Origin: an uncultured Gemmatimonadales bacterium
Lineage (GTDB): Bacteria > Gemmatimonadota > Gemmatimonadetes > Gemmatimonadales > GWC2-71-9
Direction of reading: 5' to 3'
NCBI GenBank assembly: GCA_963844035.1
Contig: CAWJMT010000004.1
Location: forward strand, 96,001 to 160,000
DNA: 64,000 nucleotides
A model generated the notes under the pieces. The model was not told where the DNA came from. It saw nothing but the letters and a program-made list of their open reading frames with translations, and searched no databases. This document shows, piece after piece, positions 26,047 to 34,511 of this stretch (position 1 is its first letter; every line of letters begins with the position of its first letter). A program made the position numbers and the translations under genes.

Positions 26047-26146
26047 CACGGCTCTGAGCTGACCCGCCGAACGGCCGCTAACAGGCGGTCGCAGAAGGTG
26101 TTGACACCCCGTTGATACGCCTGCCTAATAGTGCCAGTCCGCAACA

Positions 26147-29100
26147 TTGCGAGATGACCCTTTGGCTGCGCACCTCCTCCTGTCCACGCTCGGCGCGCCG
26201 CTTCTGTTCGCCAGCTCCGGCGAGCCCGTCAGGTTCCGCACCCGGAAGCATTTCGCGCTCTTGATCAGGCTCGGCCTCGAGAGCGGGCGTCGTTTCAGCC
26301 GCGACTACTTGACCGACCTGCTGTGGCCCGACGCGCCGGCCCGGCAGGCTCGCCACTCGCTCGCTCAGGCCCTGTCGGTGGTGAGGGCCAAGGTTGGGGC
26401 GGAGCATCTCCTCGTGCAGAAGGCCACGGTCGCGCTCGTCGCGGGCGCGGTGGACGTAGACGCGTGCCGCCTGGGCGACGGCCCGGCGGAGGTCCGGGGG
26501 CCCTTCCTTGAAGGGTTCGAGATTCCTGGTGCACCCTCGTTCGAGCAATGGAAGGACGAGTGGCGCGCCAAGCTCACGCCGCGGATCCGCGATGCCCTGG
26601 TGAGACAGATGGACGGAGGGCGGCGCATCGGGGATTTCGCAACCGTCGAGCGCTACGCCCAGGTGTTGTACGAGCTCGACCCGCTGTCGGAGGACGCGGT
26701 GCGAGGCCTGATGGAAGCACGCGCCTGGGCGGGAGACCGGCTCAACGCCTTGAAGATCTGCGCACGGTTCGCGGCCCAGCTCGAGGAGGACTTGGGAGCA
26801 AAGCCGAGTGCCGACCTCGCCCGCATGGCCGCGCTGCTGCGCGAGGGCCGCAGCTCGCTGCCGCGGCAGCCTGACGGCAACGGCGTTCAAACTGGGCCGG
26901 CCGGGCCGGCGCGCCACGAGCGGCGCTTCGAAGCAGAGACGCTGATCGGCCGCGAGACGGAGTTCGCGGTCCTGTACGACAATTGGCTCGAAGTGCGACA
27001 GCGCCGGCCGCGCGTGGTCGTCGTGACCGGGGATCCCGGGATCGGCAAGACCACGCTCACCAACGCATTCGTGTCGACCTGTCAGATGGAGGGGGCGGTG
27101 GTCGCGCGCGCTCAGGCGTATGACGCGGAGCGCGAGCTGCCCTTCGCCGTGCTGGCGGAGCTGGTGCGCCAGCTCGCCCTCCAGCGCGCCATCGGCAGCG
27201 CCGATCCGGACGCGTTGAGCGAGCTGGCGCGCATCGCGCCCGCCGTGTTCGACGCGTTCCCTGGCGTTCCCAAGCCGGTTGACTGGGCGGCCGAAGTGAC
27301 TCCCCTGCGCCTGGCCGACGCCTTTCTCCGGACGCTCGCGGCGGCCGGCGACGAAAGTCCCGTCATCCTCGTGGTGGACGACATCCACGCCGCCGACAAC
27401 GCGAGCGCCGCGATCCTGCACCTCGTGGCTCGGAAGCTCGAGGGCACGCGGCTGCTCCTGGTGCTGGCGGGCCGTTCGAGCGAGCTGCGGACCGCCACGG
27501 CACCGGGCGAGCTGGTCTCCGATTCCTCGACGCAAACCATACAGACGCTTGAGCTTGAGCCCTTGGCACCGGACGCGCTGGAGCGTCTCGCGGCCGCGAT
27601 CGCGTCCAAGGCGGGAGGCACCATACAGGATCTCCCCACCCAACGCATCCTCCGGGCGGCGAACGGCAACCCGCTGGCGCTCGAGCTGCTCACGACGGAG
27701 TGGCTCGCGCACGGGTCGACGTCCTTGCTGGCCGATCTTGGAGGCGCTGAACACTCGCCCGGTGGCGAACATCGGAATCCCGCGCGCGATCGGCGCGGTG
27801 TTCGAGCGCCAGATCCGGCGGCTGCACGCGTCTGCGCGGGCGGCGCTCGATCTCGCGGCGGTGTTGGGCCGCCGGCTCGTCGACTTGCCGCTGTACGACA
27901 TCGTGGGCCTGTCGCCCGCGGCCGCGGGGGAGATGCTGTCGCGATTGCGCGAGGAGGGTTTTCTCCGGGAGATCCACGGTGGGCTCGAGTTCCGGAATGA
28001 GCTGATACGGGCGCAGGCGTACTACGCGGTGGCCGGACCGGCGCGGCAACATCTGCACCGGCGCGTTGGCACGCTGTTGGCCGAGCGGCCGCCTGAGGAT
28101 CGGCAGTCGCTCCAGCTGGAGATCGCGTGGCATTTCCTGAGGGGGGGTGATGGAGTCCTTGCGGTCGTCTACGGATTGGTAGCGGCCGAGGAAGCGATGA
28201 GGATTGGCGCTCCCTATGAAGCACAAGAGATTCTCCAGGCACTCATCCACGAGCCGAAAGCCGAGACACACACCCTACGAATTCAATTGTTGGCCGCGCA
28301 GGCCCTATTGGAGCAATCCAAGGCACAAGCAGCGCTCGACGCACTTAGTGGCCTGGAGAATGTGACCGGAATCACGCCGCCCGTATCAGCGGAGGTCGCC
28401 AGGATGCGCGCGACAGCGCGATATCTGATGAACGAAGGTCCCCCACAAGGGTACGTCGAGGCCGCTCAAAGGGCGCTGATCGCCGCAAGGGAGGTCGGCG
28501 ATCCGGAAATACTCTCCCGAGCACTCTTCGAGTGTGCAAGAGCTGGAGCGGAGGCGGGAGACGAAGCTCTAGTCCTTGAGGCCCAAGCAGAGATCGAACA
28601 TCTCCAGAGTCAACCCGAGGCCGCAAAACTGCCAACCCTGCACTATGCCCAAGCGTTTTGCAGTTCCTTCGTCTTTGAACCCGCGCGTGCGGCCGACTCA
28701 ATGGAAGTTGCCCTGAAACTCCTGATTCCTGATGGTAACCCTAGCGAACTGTCATTCGCGTACAACGGATACGCAAACTGCAAGCTGCAACTCTGTGAGT
28801 TTGAATTGGCCCGCGAGGCGTACGGAAGGGGCCTTGAGTTGGCAAGGAAGGTAGGTGACGACTCTCGAGCGTCGGTGGTCGCGGGAAATTTGTGCGGTGT
28901 GCTCTCGATGATGGGGGACTATTCAGCCGCTGTGAGGGTGGGAGAAGATGGCGTTCGATTTGGTGTCCGATGTCCTAGCCAGCCAGTCCTGATAACATGC
29001 TTCACTAGTTTGGCTGAGGCCCACGCCCTCGCCGGTGACAAAATTCGCGCGATTGACAGTCTTAAGGAGGCACAGGAGTGGCTTCAAAGGAGGCAGAGCT

Positions 29101-29507
29101 GGTCAGCTAATGTTGAGTTCCTCTGTCAGAAAGCGCTCATCGCCCTGTTGATGGGTGACCTGGGCTTGGCTCTGGACACTACGGCCCTGGCGGAAAAGGC
29201 TGCGTGGCGCAGAGAACGAACGGTACCAAACCCTGGAATCCTGGCCAAGCTCCGGATCATGCGAGCGGCCCACGTTTCTGGCTTTGAGTCCGCCTTCGCT
29301 ATCGCGCAGGACGCCATGGCGAGGTTCTGTGGTCACCACCCGTTACATTCTCTCGCGGTGTCGACAGCGATAGTGTGGGTGGAGAACAATGCCGGATGCT
29401 CGCATTCGACCGAAACCCAGAAAGCACTGCAACGTCTCGAAATGCCGGAGTTGCGAGGATATAGAGCCATGCTTACAGCCCAAGGGTTCTTGGCGCAGCG
29501 GGCTTGA
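26147..29507 (+). CDS. Large transcriptional regulator: winged helix/BTAD + AAA ATPase + TPR region (frameshift ~27740)
   Basis: SRDYLTDLLWPD...ARHSL.QALS; DPLSE.AVRGLM (BTAD); Walker A GDPGIGKT; Walker B VVDDIH.AD; GNPL; helical TPR-like C-terminus. Confidence 0.85.
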
Positions 29508-29641
29508 TCCCGTTCCAGGCCCCGTCACCCTTTTTGCCCCGCCCAAGGACCCGCCAATCCACACTACGGCCAAAGTCCCTCAAAGATTATGCGCGACGAC
29601 TAGTGTTGGGCTGCTGGCGGGCAGGTCCGTCGCCTCTTCCT

Positions 29642-31015
29642 TTACGGAATAGGAACGCCTTGCTCCACTGTCGCCCGGGGTTGTCTAGAGGCAGTCGCCC
29701 GCTCGAATGCCGCGGGTCCCGATCGGAATGCGGAAGGAGACGCCTTCGCAACCACGCGACGGATTGCAATCGACCTATTCACTATGTCGGCAATTCTGGG
29801 GTCGAATTGCTTACCAGAGTACTTACGAATCTCCTCAAGCGCTCGGTCAAACGGAAGGGCTTTTCTATAAGGGCGGTCCGTTGTCATCGCATCGAGAGTG
29901 TCTGCCACCATTATGATACGTGCGCCCAGAGGAATTCCTTCGCCCGCGAGGCAGTCCGGATAACCCGTACCGTCAAAGTTCTCATGGTGGTGGCGAACCG
30001 CCTTCTCGATCGGGCCCCGCAAACTCGAAATCGTGGTGACGAGCTCAGCGGACCTCACCGGGTGGGTCTGAAGCAGCGCCTTCTCCTCAGGAGTTAGCCT
30101 ACCCTCCTTGTGAAGGAGTGGAGCGTACTCCTCGTATACTTTGCCAACGTCATGTAGCAACGCAGCAGTGGCAATCTGCTCGACCTGTCGGACCCCAGCC
30201 CCAGCTTCCTTTGCGAGAATTCGCGCGTACTGCGACACGCGCTGCGAATGACCCGACGTGTAGGGATCGCGGGCTTCGATTTGCTTGACCATCAACTCAA
30301 GGAGTTCACGACTCGCCTGTTGTAGCCGAAGGTTCTGTACGTAGACATGTCGAACAATGAAGAGAGGAGCGGCGAGAGCAACCACACCACCAAGCTCCCA
30401 CCGTACGTACATGTACGCCAACACGGCTGGCACTGGCGTGACAAAGAGGTCGTAGACCGCAGAACCGCCGAAGAGCCGGGCCCAAGCCCCAGTAAATCCT
30501 ATGCCCTCAGCCAAAGAAACGACAAAGCTCACAGCGGTGGAACTCGCCACGGCGTACGCCAGGGCGCTCAGAAACACCGCGACAGGTACGAACTCGAACT
30601 CGTATAGGGAAGGGGTGCCTCCAAAAAATCGATAGACCGATGCCGCGAAGCCCAGGGACAGGATTTCCTTGGATGAGTTGAAAACAACCTTTATCCAGGG
30701 CTTCTTCCGAATCAACAGGTCTGCGGTGAAGAACGTTGCCCCACCTATCGCCATTGCCCAGAATGGGCCGAAGAGGAATATGGCAGCGAGGAACGGGATG
30801 AATGCGACCGACATGGTGGCAGTGCCAAGTTGAACGCTGACAAAGCTCATCTCAGCAGCCAAGGCAACTGCAACTATTGCAATAAGACCGTTTGAGAACT
30901 TGCTAGACCAATCCCAGACCTCGCCGTTGCCCGCCACAACCATTGCGACAACAGCGCCGCAAGCGATTGCGGACACGCAAAACTTTAGGAGACGTGATCT
31001 AGTAAGGACGTCCAT
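29642..31015 (-). CDS. HD-GYP domain protein with multi-TM N-terminal sensor (putative c-di-GMP phosphodiesterase)
   Basis: DPYTSGHSQRV, LLHDVGK, HHENFDGTGYP, VADTLDAMTTDRPYRK; about 7 hydrophobic segments; GAGGTG RBS. Confidence 0.93.
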   Translation of the reverse strand: MDVLTRSRLLKFCVSAIACGAVVAMVVAGNGEVWDWSSKFSNGLIAIVAVALAAEMSFVSVQLGTATMSVAFIPFLAAIFLFGPFWAMAIGGATFFTADLLIRKKPWIKVVFNSSKEILSLGFAASVYRFFGGTPSLYEFEFVPVAVFLSALAYAVASSTAVSFVVSLAEGIGFTGAWARLFGGSAVYDLFVTPVPAVLAYMYVRWELGGVVALAAPLFIVRHVYVQNLRLQQASRELLELMVKQIEARDPYTSGHSQRVSQYARILAKEAGAGVRQVEQIATAALLHDVGKVYEEYAPLLHKEGRLTPEEKALLQTHPVRSAELVTTISSLRGPIEKAVRHHHENFDGTGYPDCLAGEGIPLGARIIMVADTLDAMTTDRPYRKALPFDRALEEIRKYSGKQFDPRIADIVNRSIAIRRVVAKASPSAFRSGPAAFERATASRQPRATVEQGVPIP

Positions 31016-31061
31016 CTACCAGCACCTCAAGAGTGCGAGAGAGGGTGGCCCCAAGCTGTCG

Positions 31062-31142
31062 TTACCAACCTACCGAGATGTTTGCCATCAGAACGCGGAC
31101 GACCGCGCCCAACAGCAACGCGAGCAGCTTTAGCGCAAACAT
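31062..31142 (-). CDS. Unannotated 26-aa hydrophobic peptide MFALKLLALLLGAVVRVLMANISVGW
   Basis: ATG 31142 to TAA 31062; AGGAGGTGA RBS ends 6 nt before ATG; lies 46 nt upstream of the HD-GYP start on the same strand. Confidence 0.75.
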   Translation of the reverse strand: MFALKLLALLLGAVVRVLMANISVGW

Positions 31143-31365
31143 AGAGCGTCACCTCCTCACGGGGCCTACGAGACTTGCTCGATAGACTTGGAGTGGCACG
31201 CCTCGCTATGGCGTACCCGACGCTCCGCTCCTCAGCTTTTCGCTCGGCTTCGCTCGGGCAACTACAACCCGGGGCCCCTTCCCTCCTTCTCGTTCACAGT
31301 TCGCAACGTGTTTTGCCCAGCGTGCCAGCTTGCGCACGAGGGTGGGAGAAGAATCGTTGCTACGC

Positions 31366-31966
31366 CTACGCCGCCTTCCGCCTCCGCAACGCTTGGCGCA
31401 CCGCGTCAATGACCGCCGAGACGCCGTCCGCCTTGTTGACGATTGTCCTGCACACCGAGTTTGCGCAGCCGCTCTTGATCCTCGACCTCGATGCCGCCGG
31501 TGATGACCAGCAGCTCGGCGGGGAGTTTGCGCCCCGGCTCGAGCAGTCGCTCGATGATCTGCAGGGCGTTCAAGTCCGGCAACCGGTAGTCCAACGCGAT
31601 CAAGGCCGGGCGCACGCGACCGATGGCGATCAACGCGTCCACGCCGTTCGTCACCTTCACGACGTCCAGACCCAGATCCGCCTTCTCGATCAACCGCGAC
31701 AGCGCCTCGAGGTACGTCCGATCGTCGTCCACCAGGACCATCACGTCCCGCGCGACGGCCTCGTGGAGATCCGACGGCACGCCCATGTCGTGCGCTCGGA
31801 GAAAATTCACGAGCTCGCTCACCTCGACCCGCCGCCGACCCGTGGGCGTCTTGTGACCGCTCAAGAGCCCCTGATCGATCCAGTTTGCAACCGTCGCCGG
31901 CGACACCTGACAGGCGCGGGCCACCCGCTGGGTGCCCCAATAGCGCTTCGTACGTGGCGTATTCAC
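31366..31966 (-). CDS. Response regulator with N-terminal excisionase/MerR-like HTH (frameshift ~31445)
   Basis: VARACQVSPATVANWID.G.L...KTPTGRRRV; receiver VLVDDD, ALDYRLP, ITG, VNK. Confidence 0.85.
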
Positions 31967-32082: not shown

Positions 32083-32814
32083 TTACCTCCGAGCATCAGA
32101 CCAGCGATTGGTGGCATCCAGGACCGCCAGCACGGCACTGCGCTCGGCGCTCTCCCGGATCTCGCAGGTCCCCGTCAACAACTGGGCCTCGCGGCCCCCC
32201 AACCCATGCACCGCCACCAGCACGAACTTCCGATCGAACGCTTCGATCAATTGGGCGCCTTCCAGGGCCACCGAGTTGTCGGGGAGCAGCTCGTCGAGGC
32301 ACAGCGCGGCCGCCCGGGCCGCCGATTCCACCCGATTCCGCATCGTGTCGGTCCCCTGCTCCTCGGCCTCCGCCTCGCGATCCTCGAACCCCAATCGCAC
32401 CCGCACCAACACGCGCTGCGGCCGCTCGGACGGACGCACCTCGAGACCGCGAAACACCACCACCCGCCGCTTGGCGCGCGTGGCGATCGCTTCCTGATGC
32501 AACGCCTCGATCGGACGGACGTCCGACGTTTGCGCCACGCTGATCTTGCGGTGATCGATCTTGAGCCCGAGCTGCGCCATGAGCGCCGACTCGATGTTGC
32601 GCACCACCTGCTTGGGCTGTACATCGCTCAACGTGAGCACGTGGACCTCGGTCACCTCGCCCTGGGGGCTGACGACGACGCGCGCCGACAGGATCCCCGT
32701 CAGGCTGGTGATCAGGTTCTCGGCTCGCTTCGTGCCCCACGGGTCCGTCGGCGCGAGTGGCAGCGGATCGGACTCGGCGTCCCCCGATAGATGCGACGGC
32801 TTGGAAAACGTCAC
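32083..32814 (-). CDS. Conserved hypothetical protein (IDHRKISVAQ motif)
   Basis: GGGGAG RBS; typical coding composition; KQVVRNIESAL..IDHRKISVAQ, AVLDATNR. Confidence 0.75.
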   Translation of the reverse strand: MTFSKPSHLSGDAESDPLPLAPTDPWGTKRAENLITSLTGILSARVVVSPQGEVTEVHVLTLSDVQPKQVVRNIESALMAQLGLKIDHRKISVAQTSDVRPIEALHQEAIATRAKRRVVVFRGLEVRPSERPQRVLVRVRLGFEDREAEAEEQGTDTMRNRVESAARAAALCLDELLPDNSVALEGAQLIEAFDRKFVLVAVHGLGGREAQLLTGTCEIRESAERSAVLAVLDATNRWSDARR

Positions 32815-32815
32815 G

Positions 32816-34511
32816 TCAGGTCTCCCCCGTTGCGACTCGATTCCGACCCAGTTGCTTGGCACGGTACAGTGCGCGGTCGGCTGCTATCAATACGTCCTCG
32901 TGCTCCGGCCCAAGCTGCGCCTCTGCGACTCCTATGCTAACGGTCACCAGCCCCTCCGGATAGCCCATGCGCCGCCCCAGCGCCTCCACCTGCGTCCGCA
33001 CCTTTTGCGCCACGGCGGTAGCGCCGGGAAGGCCGGTGCGGACCAGTACCATGACGAACTCGTCGCCCCCGTAGCGCGCCGCGAGGTCGGTGGTGCGGAT
33101 CAGCGCCTGGCACTCGCGCGCCGTGCCCCGGAGCACCTCGTTCCCAGCCTCATGGCCGAACCGGTCGTTGACCTGCTTGAAGTTGTCCAGATCGACGAAC
33201 AAGACCACGAACGTCTCCCCCGACCGCGAGCTGCGGGCGGTCTCCGTGGCGAGCCGGTCGCGCAGCACGCGGAACGTGGCCAGCCCCGTGAGGGCGTCGA
33301 TCGCGGCCTGCTGGTGCGCTTGGGTCGCCTCCTTGTCGAGATAGGGGGGGCACGCCTTGAGCGTCGTACGCCCCAGCGCCGCCGCTGCGGCGAACGCCCG
33401 ACAGGTTGCGTATCCGCACGCGCCGCAGTCCCACGGCTTGCCGTTGGACGCCATCCCGATCTGCGACAGGATCTGATCGACCGCCTCTGCCGGAGCCCCG
33501 TGTCCGTTTTGATGGAACGGGAAAACGGCACCCACGCGCACGCCATCCGCGACCGACTCCTCGACGACCGGCAAGCGGGCCCGGGCAGGCTCCGTCGCCC
33601 CGACGATCTCGCGCCTCCAAAACAAACCTTCCGGCGGCCCGATCAACGGGTGGTCAAGGCAGCCATCGCATGGCAGGATGTCGACGAACCCCAGGTCGAT
33701 CCGGTCCACCGCGACGGCACGCGCCAGGGCTTCCAGCTGGGTCAGACCACGCATCTTCCGGAACCGCCGGCTCGATTGGCGTTCCGCCATCAGCACCTCG
33801 AGCGGCAGTCCCCCCGCCGTGCTCCAATGGCGCCGCCGCTCTTCCGGCATCCGGCTGAAATGCAGCGGCTGCTCGAGGGGGCGCACCCCGGCCCGCTCGA
33901 GAATCGTCCCCAATTCCCCGAAGGTGATCGCAGCATCCACGTCCCCTCCCCCCTCAGTCACGCAGACGCCCGGCATAGACCACTGATGTGCCGGGGCCGT
34001 ACATCTGCTTGAGGTAGCGCGCCTCAGCGGCGATCGGGGTTGCCACCGGCGCGAGGTACGGGATCAGCTCGGGGTACTTGGTCCGCACCGTCTCCACGAT
34101 CACGGGACAGGTACTGCGGATCATCGTCCCCCAGCCAGTGTCGTTCCATGCCCGCAGGTACTCCCGGGCGACCAACTCGTCACCCAGGACCCCCCGGTGC
34201 ACCGTACGGAAACCCGCCGCGTAACACGCGTTGACGACCTGTTCGGGGGTGGCTGGATAGAAATGGACGGCGGATTCGACACTCAGGATGATTGTGGCAC
34301 GCCCGCCACACGCCAGCTGATACGCGCGCTCGAAGTCGCCCACGGCGATGATCGCCTCGTGGGGACAGGCGGGAAGGCACAGGCCGCACCGGGTGCACGA
34401 CTCGTCGACGATCCGGACCTTCTCGGCCTCGACAGCGACGGCGTCAGCGGGGCAAACCCGCACACAGGCATGGCACGCCACGCAACTGTCGGGCTCGACT
34501 CTAAAATCCAC
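32816..34511 (-). CDS. Diguanylate cyclase with N-terminal 2x[4Fe-4S], [FeFe]-hydrogenase-like and FeS domains (frameshift ~33975)
   Basis: CVACHACVRVCP/CTRCGLCLPACP; RSTCPVIV...YPELIPYLAPVATP; DCGACGYATC...CPPY; DALTGL, DLDNFKQVND.FGH..G, RYGGDEF. Confidence 0.88.

Follow-up and report, generated by a model that had tools for sequence, protein, structure and literature searches.

Why should the base composition of a genome fall abruptly in the middle of a gene? This question is raised by a 64,000-nucleotide (nt) stretch of an uncultured Gemmatimonadales bacterium (contig CAWJMT010000004.1 of assembly GCA_963844035.1, positions 96,001 to 160,000), which was analysed as a whole and is here called the window. 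Within it the guanine plus cytosine (GC) content drops inside the gene of a transcriptional regulator with a tetratricopeptide repeat (TPR) sensor, and stays low across a convergent gene for a MASE9-HD-GYP membrane protein and the small peptide gene upstream of it. An earlier note on this DNA proposed that the TPR half, the membrane sensor and possibly the peptide are swapped together as one specificity cassette. Are these parts really exchanged between strains? And, if they are, do they form a single unit of specificity? Comparison with related sequences indicates that the locus is a polymorphic cassette, found in different versions in near-identical strains between conserved flanks. It also indicates that the tail of the peptide and the MASE9 domain are the specificity pair, and that the TPR half is often swapped along with this pair but is not locked to the peptide type.

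Exchange of alleles between conserved flanks

The main parts of the locus in the window are the following.
28,130–31,315, no strand: low-GC block, GC 0.577 against 0.679 outside
26147..28151, plus strand: conserved half of the regulator gene, with a winged helix-turn-helix (HTH; Trans_reg_C), BTAD, a STAND-type ATPase (AAA_16) and an arm; left flank of the cassette
28152..29507, plus strand: variable TPR half of the same gene, modelled as an all-helical TPR superhelix (predicted local distance difference test 94)
29642..31015, minus strand: MASE9-HD-GYP gene, 457 amino acids, with the MASE9 membrane sensor (residues 46–218) and the HD-GYP domain
31062..31142, minus strand: peptide gene, 26 amino acids, MFALKLLALLLGAVVRVLMANISVGW, with a conserved, hydrophobic leader, the last residue of which is Ala, and then six variable tail residues (31,082–31,065)

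The limits of the block are those of the best two-change-point fit to GC over 24–36 kb, and the lowest-GC 2.95-kb stretch of the whole window lies within it. The hand-counted samples of the earlier note (46/60, 30/60 and 26/60) were exact on recount, and its block starting mid-gene was recovered by computation, as both GC and GC at third codon positions (GC3) fall inside the regulator gene. The drop is sited at the start of the TPR part, directly past the motif LEIAWH; GC3 is about 0.86 before it and 0.61 after it, and the HD-GYP gene has a value of 0.62. No integrase or insertion sequence had been noticed at the edges, and indeed the genes scanned on both sides match no integrase or transposase family. 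No tRNA was found in the 64-kb window and no long terminal repeat was found bounding the block. An integrative island was therefore rejected, as it would have an integrase or transposase, a tRNA site and terminal repeats.

In two loci of one species group, L115 and L164, the ATPase half of the regulator is 96–97% identical in nucleotides and the three right-hand genes are 95–99% identical. Inside the cassette identity collapses to 75% in the TPR part, 72% in the HD domain and 56% in MASE9. Synonymous divergence (dS) is 0.03–0.20 outside the cassette, compared to 1.3 or saturation inside. Four pairs passed the filter of at least 92% identity in both flanks, and two of them carry the same allele. 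In four further near-conspecific groups, with one flank at least 93% identical and with different ends, MASE9 is 57–64% and the TPR part 50–63% identical in nucleotides. Near-conspecific pairs with the same end have MASE9 sequences that are 79–100% identical.

The window itself shows such a switch. It matches contigs from two studies (P1 and P2; runs X1 and X5) at about 95% up to position 28,152, where the allele changes. Past this point the X1 and X5 contigs continue, in frame, with the same new sequence, of which 12 of 30 letters are identical to the window by hand count. In the runs compared, none of the contigs that cross 28,152 carries the allele of the window, and runs X6 and X8 have no piece at this junction. 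Run X1 also has a 203-nt contig identical to window positions 31037–31219, which hold the peptide gene; in the main flank contig from X1 the TPR allele is a different one, and the two contigs are unlinkable.

The edges of the exchanged tract lie within genes. In L115/L164, L027/L180 and L145/L174 the left edge falls close to where the TPR part begins; in L135/L169 it is about 850 nt earlier. On the right, seven pairs could be aligned: the edge is at the boundary between peptide leader and tail in four and earlier within the peptide gene in three. In L115/L164 it is six codons before the stop. In the window the tract is slightly shorter than the low-GC block on this side, ending at about 31,080 inside the peptide gene. 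The possibility that the peptide belongs to the exchanged tract was thus right in part, since the peptide is included by only its last codons. The collapse of identity inside the cassette, the 95–99% flanks of L115 and L164 and the switch at 28,152 together demonstrate, at the level of sequence, allele exchange between conserved flanks, as the earlier note had supposed. Homologous recombination would be the means.

The same layout recurs in relatives. Sixty loci were found through the ATPase half, all but three of them titled Gemmatimonadota, and at least 120 metagenome loci matched the leader region that lies before the peptide gene; 80 of these have long flanks, and 49 of the 80 have at least 2.3 kb downstream of the leader. 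Since each set was picked by one part of the locus, their counts describe the loci and not frequencies in the phylum. Where there was enough sequence the two convergent genes occur together: the HD-GYP gene is present in all 32 ATPase-half loci with at least 2.5 kb downstream, and the TPR in 46 of the 49 leader loci. Three leader loci, L102, L130 and L170, are without a TPR regulator beside the HD-GYP gene, and the HD part of L102 is apparently truncated as well. No regulator was annotated or seen at two Firmicutes loci. Gene order is kept in three families of Gemmatimonadales, and a search of 121 genomes of the phylum detected MASE9 in 59.

Low GC is shared as well. Median GC3 in the relatives is 0.62 for the TPR part (38 loci), 0.64 for the HD domain (32) and 0.64 for MASE9 (29), as opposed to 0.86–0.91 for five flank genes and 0.79–0.83 for the conserved half of the regulator. 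In some lineages the low-GC zone takes in more of the ATPase half. The HD domain has returned to a GC3 of 0.92–0.94 in L089 and L090. Because the Gemmatimonadales relatives have the same layout and low GC3, low GC is not the sign of a single foreign import; it has persisted in the cassette across the whole order and dates no recent import, and a recent import from a low-GC donor was rejected for this reason. The best explanation is that old and diverged alleles with rare internal recombination would have escaped the force that keeps the remaining genome GC-rich.

The regulator shows the same division within one chain. It has all the parts of a SARP-STAND-TPR regulator: the winged HTH, BTAD, an ATPase with a Walker A (GDPGIGKT) and a Walker B (LVVDD) motif, and the TPR. 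Mean pairwise identity among its relatives is 0.60–0.84 up to residue 650 (one bin is at 0.42), 0.51 at residues 651–700 and 0.27–0.47 beyond. The TPR halves of 66 loci fall into 32 clusters at 55% identity. Elsewhere in the genome are three distant paralogues of the ATPase half (29–33% identity), on contigs C26, C34 and C37.

The peptide gene and its match to MASE9

The peptide gene is real. Its 26 codons are preceded by a good ribosome site and it lies 46 nt upstream of the HD-GYP gene; across loci the tail is 30–70 nt from the MASE9 gene. A peptide open reading frame (ORF) was called in 108 of the 109 metagenome loci with room for one, and two of these were apparently frameshifted and were dropped. 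There are 94 distinct peptides and 54 distinct last-five ends, all variations on a common pattern: 88 of the 94 have Ala at position -7, 79 have Gly or Ala at -5, and 90 end in Trp, Leu, Ile or Phe. One identical leader was found with 13 different ends. The last five residues are fixed within a type while the leader changes, and may even shorten to 10 residues, as in the 15-residue form with the normal tail GLVSW of L105, L150, L157 and L174. The end GLVGW is encoded by 10 different codon strings, and the leader has proportions of 0.59 synonymous (pS) and 0.27 nonsynonymous (pN) differences. Purifying selection on both tail and leader is shown by such codon comparisons.

Which part of the locus does the end of the peptide follow? 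In a nearest-relative test, for which 86 of 95 loci were kept after removal of near-duplicates, the nearest relative of MASE9 carried the same end in 47 of 54 eligible loci, where chance gives 2.6. The corresponding counts are 33/52 for the HD domain, 17/35 for the TPR half, 8/23 for the ATPase half and 6–9 of 22–26 for the right flank genes. Among the 47 loci that hold all four parts, the nearest relative shared the end in 23/23 cases for MASE9, 13/23 for HD, 13/23 for TPR and 8/23 for the ATPase half. It is because the end predicts the nearest MASE9 in all 23, the nearest TPR in 13 and the nearest ATPase half in 8 that we take tail and MASE9 to be the specificity pair. The type of the peptide matches the sensing domain of its putative receptor independently of host lineage, with tight linkage as a confounder.

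Trees point the same way. Eight ends placed on them need 7 changes for MASE9, which is the minimum, 9 each for HD and TPR, and 11 for the ATPase half. The loci ending in GLVGW, a group selected after the identity tables were seen, form a clade on the MASE9 tree (support 86, not starred) that is not rejected for HD (p 0.64) and is rejected for the TPR (p-AU 8.6e-6) and the ATPase half (1.1e-5), all of these being quick trees. Multi-member clusters have a single end in 10 of 14 cases for MASE9 and in 1 of 10 for the TPR. The TPRs of loci sharing GLVGW are only 31–50% identical, and seven of them have no excess of shared residues (3 columns against a null mean of 2.0).

The proposal that TPR, membrane sensor and peptide are one locked unit was therefore not upheld, since 9 of the 10 TPR clusters mix ends. 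The direct functional link that had been drawn between the two convergent genes was likewise not borne out, because the TPR does not follow the peptide end. Although swapped in the same tract, the TPR half assorts separately over longer times, and crossovers in the conserved HD domain between the two may allow this. Its model matches OGT, LGN, Rap and NprR alike at 11–19% identity, which is unspecific as to ligand. The ratio of nonsynonymous to synonymous divergence (dN/dS) of the TPR is about 0.1 in most same-type pairs. The TPR half probably responds to a cue that is separate or broader, and the receptor defining the peptide type is probably another. Binding of the TPR to the C-terminal tail of the HD-GYP protein was also considered and rejected: the similarity of that tail tracks the TPR (rho 0.32) less than it tracks the ATPase half (0.49).

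What would the partner of the peptide be? In the window protein MASE9 (PF20972; 26.9 bits against a cut-off of 24.3) is N-terminal to HD-GYP, whose HD, HHExxDGxGYP and RxYR motifs are intact and are mostly invariant across 41 homologues. The defining motifs are HD, HHExh(D/N)GxGYP and RxY(K/R) in the main text of bioRxiv 10.1101/2021.11.05.467447, where binding of the MASE9 ligand within the membrane is proposed. The modelled HD-GYP domain resembles HD-GYP enzymes of known structure (E 1e-9), and the domain is predicted from motifs and fold to be a phosphodiesterase of cyclic di-GMP (c-di-GMP). The model of the membrane part has weak matches to ligand-binding energy-coupling factor (ECF) S-components (E 0.05–0.2), which are a lead only.

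The leader RNA and neighbouring genes

Upstream of the peptide gene is the right flank of the cassette, with these features.
31144..31278, minus strand: conserved leader, predicted structured RNA
31,256–31,219, minus strand: AGCG(G/A)A repeats of the leader
31,217–31,195, minus strand: leader hairpin with compensatory changes, 5 of 8 pairs being changed on both sides
31,194–31,190 with 31,156–31,151, minus strand: leader stem over the Shine-Dalgarno sequence of the peptide
31409..31966, minus strand: HTH-receiver response regulator, a flank gene that adjoins the leader only in close relatives of the window
32083..32862, minus strand: orf32, a conserved protein without a known family; its gene precedes the leader in three families of Gemmatimonadales and two Firmicutes records

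In the leader alignment 96.6% of cells pair, as against 33–55% when the partners are shifted along each other; this count uses the very sequences on which the structure was drawn, and the outer stem has no covariation in the set. No Rfam covariance model reaches its gathering score on the leader. A peptide behind such a leader was seen at 19 of 30 phylum-wide MASE9 loci, where the first candidate alone was taken per locus and the remainder are not negatives. The sequence GGGGCCCC is conserved before the leader (31278–31271, minus strand) and a GGGGCC/CCCTC stretch follows the peptide stop (about 31,052–31,040, minus strand). The two could pair with each other or with the ribosome site of HD-GYP and so couple both genes.

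The orf32 protein is highly conserved, with 4935 homologues in one search, and has no family in Pfam, NCBIfam, the sequences of the PDB or the Atlas. Its C-terminus may be like the LeuA regulatory domain, although searches gave no confirmation of this. It is a candidate binder of the leader. Of other candidates for the repeats, TRAP was rejected, as PF02081 was in 0 of 41 genomes with a positive Bacillus subtilis control, and the HTH of the regulator is disfavoured by a repeat spacing of 12 to 17 nt and by the leader's presence in Firmicutes loci that have no regulator. A regulon of such leaders was also rejected, the sole other pattern match in the genome falling inside a coding region. The two Firmicutes records carry the module beyond the phylum. 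In Natranaerobius an orf32 homologue, a like leader and a peptide (read from the DNA by eye) are followed by MASE9-HD-GYP and DUF5317; the order in Subdoligranulum is similar, with different paired letters in the leader, again by eye. No paper on DUF5317 was found in the open-access literature.

Two further sites near the cassette may be mentioned. A gene 1.8 kb away (window 32816–34511, minus strand; two overlapping ORFs here) encodes a sensor part like the Fe-S regions of ferredoxin and [FeFe]-hydrogenase and then GGDEF, and is, by its sequence, likely a redox-linked diguanylate cyclase adjoining the phosphodiesterase locus. To the left of the regulator, the interval from the moxR gene differs by several kb among relatives (L003, L004, L005, L020, L035, L036, L038, L042), and is a second variable site beside the cassette.

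The quality of the assembly must be kept in mind. Single extra bases at 26089, 27738 and 31449 of the window are absent from contigs of close strains, and further window genes also appear split; indel errors in the source assembly are likely. The base at about 27,738 breaks the frame of the regulator in this assembly only. It is probably an assembly error, because it is missing in contigs from three of the four runs compared and because the frame is continuous across this position in related loci. The base at 31,449, in the response regulator gene, is absent from two run X1 contigs. The contig that holds the window ends, outside it, in 44 kb at 29% GC (about 411,600–455,400) in a genome of 67% GC, which is probably a mis-join or contaminant.

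A probable pherotype-like signal and its alternatives

The reading that we favour, with somewhat better than even confidence, is that the peptide is a pherotype-like signal read by the MASE9-HD-GYP protein, its tail being released outside the cytoplasm and switching the fused phosphodiesterase. The leader RNA would control translation of the precursor, which may be cleaved after the conserved Ala. The tail would then be exported, reach MASE9 from outside the cytoplasm and bind in its pocket, and this binding would set phosphodiesterase activity and hence the level of c-di-GMP. The signal would act between cells, giving strains private signalling dialects. Action between cells is preferred because there are many types, several per species, that are swapped along with the receptor as in comQXP.

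Several points weigh against this reading. L115/L164 is the only species group with both flanks at least 92% identical and different alleles. The near-conspecific L085 and L173 differ by one tail residue, and their MASE9 sequences are still as much as 83% identical in nucleotides. Four of the 14 multi-member MASE9 clusters mix related ends. The tail adjoins the MASE9 gene, and some of the matching therefore follows from linkage alone. Nor are the counts independent, since the loci are related and kin share alleles. The hydrophobic tail could remain tethered, and there is no dedicated processing or export gene in the locus. The match to S-components is not significant by E-value, and DUF5317, the neighbour in the two Firmicutes records, is in 0 of 41 Gemmatimonadales genomes.

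Could the product instead stay uncleaved in the membrane, as a micro-protein that binds the MASE9 of its own cell, the two co-evolving and their exchange being driven otherwise, as by escape from phage or from a rival's toxin? A hydrophobic product of 15–28 amino acids without a processing gene in the locus would fit, and the matching of tail and MASE9 suits any physical partner. It is not obvious, however, why a purely internal pair should have 54 ends, or why its type should differ within a species. The varying leader and the last five residues fixed within a type are moreover what is expected of a precursor and its product, and we consider this alternative, the main one, unlikely.

That TPR (inside the cell) and MASE9 (outside it) recognise the same peptide, so that the three parts form one specificity unit, is improbable. 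The same end occurs with unrelated TPRs, the GLVGW clade is rejected on the TPR tree, the GLVGW TPRs lack an excess of shared residues and nearly all TPR clusters mix ends, and the regulator is missing at the three leader loci and two Firmicutes loci described above. These outweigh the co-occurrence of the two genes in 32/32 and 46/49 loci and the finding that TPR and end changed together in each of the five near-conspecific groups with measurements of both. The nearest TPR does share the end more often than the ATPase half, and the TPR model does match Rap and NprR, which bind peptides, as it does many further TPR proteins.

We give very little credence to the peptide as a regulatory upstream ORF only, whose translation opens the HD-GYP start and whose tail follows MASE9 by linkage alone. 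It does follow a leader with a predicted stem over the Shine-Dalgarno sequence of the peptide, it is 30–70 nt before the HD-GYP start, and the GGGGCC/CCCTC stretch past its stop has a putative pairing with the next ribosome site. An ORF of this kind would not explain why the amino acids of the tail are conserved within a type despite many silent changes, in a fixed residue pattern.

Lastly, that the block is a recent low-GC import, a hot spot of local mutation or a chimera of the assembly is largely refuted and hardly credible: its sharp GC edge, the indel errors, the 29% GC end of the contig, which is far from the window, and the lack of a contig bridging 28,152 with the window's allele, which leaves room for a strain-level join in this assembly, are set against relatives in three families that have these genes in this order and with low GC3, an HD-GYP protein closest to those of its own genus and family (70–72%), and same-type alleles in close strains that are no more diverged than their flanks (dS 0.01–0.07). 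Local hypermutation was rejected on the last of these observations and on the low dN/dS of the TPR.

How does the locus compare with known systems? Staphylococcal agrBDC has the same polymorphic arrangement of a peptide and the sensing end of its receptor. In PMC6334282, comQXPA of Bacillus has a polymorphic pherotype layout, and the likeness is close: a block with peptide and receptor sensing end, conserved flanks, several types per species and edges inside genes. The resemblance to pherotype loci that the earlier note had drawn is to this extent well founded, as several types per species are swapped between conserved flanks here too. The differences are a MASE9-HD-GYP phosphodiesterase as receptor in place of a histidine kinase, a diderm host and a structured leader before the peptide gene. 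By homology the locus does not belong to ComQXPA or Agr, which have a histidine-kinase receptor and a dedicated modifying enzyme; no match to their families was found in scans of the genes in and beside the block, and no modifying enzyme gene is there.

RRNPP receptors are cytoplasmic TPR regulators beside a small precursor of the Phr, PapR, NprX or SHP type, the last five to seven residues of which are variable. Our regulator shares with them the cytoplasmic location, a TPR superhelix, which is not RRNPP-specific, and a neighbouring small precursor with a variable end. It differs in having BTAD and a STAND ATPase, in a fold match no better than to unrelated TPR proteins (11–14% identity) and in a TPR type that does not follow the neighbouring peptide. 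SARP-STAND-TPR regulators of the AfsR/MalT type combine, in a single chain, a winged HTH, BTAD and a STAND ATPase with a TPR sensor at the C-terminus, as here. The difference is that strains with this locus have exchanged the TPR half and kept the host's own DNA-binding and ATPase half. Thermotoga maritima TM1467 and Streptomyces venezuelae HdgA have the same MASE9 and HD-GYP domain pair and the defining motif (bioRxiv 10.1101/2021.11.05.467447); the main text of that source names no ligand, is without the words 'peptide' or 'Gemmatimonad', and does not include an upstream peptide, a leader or allele exchange. No published description of this system was found in the open-access literature, which leaves out most subscription papers.

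Pherotype-like polymorphism of this sort has hitherto been known mainly in Gram-positive hosts. MASE9 is an orphan sensor domain, and the locus offers candidate ligands together with natural cognate and non-cognate pairs, such as the ends GMVGL and GTYQI of a single species. If the favoured reading is true, there is a class of peptide receptor with c-di-GMP output, and pherotype-like polymorphism in an abundant diderm soil phylum. The broadest form of this interpretation stands, in our judgement, at even odds: MASE9 would be a new class of peptide-pheromone receptor, in which a tail of five or six residues, cut from a micro-protein, sets c-di-GMP directly by way of a phosphodiesterase in the membrane, the leader RNA and its binding protein would extend across phyla, and Gemmatimonadota would have a quorum or kin recognition of many dialects, with a second, swappable TPR sensor wired to transcription.

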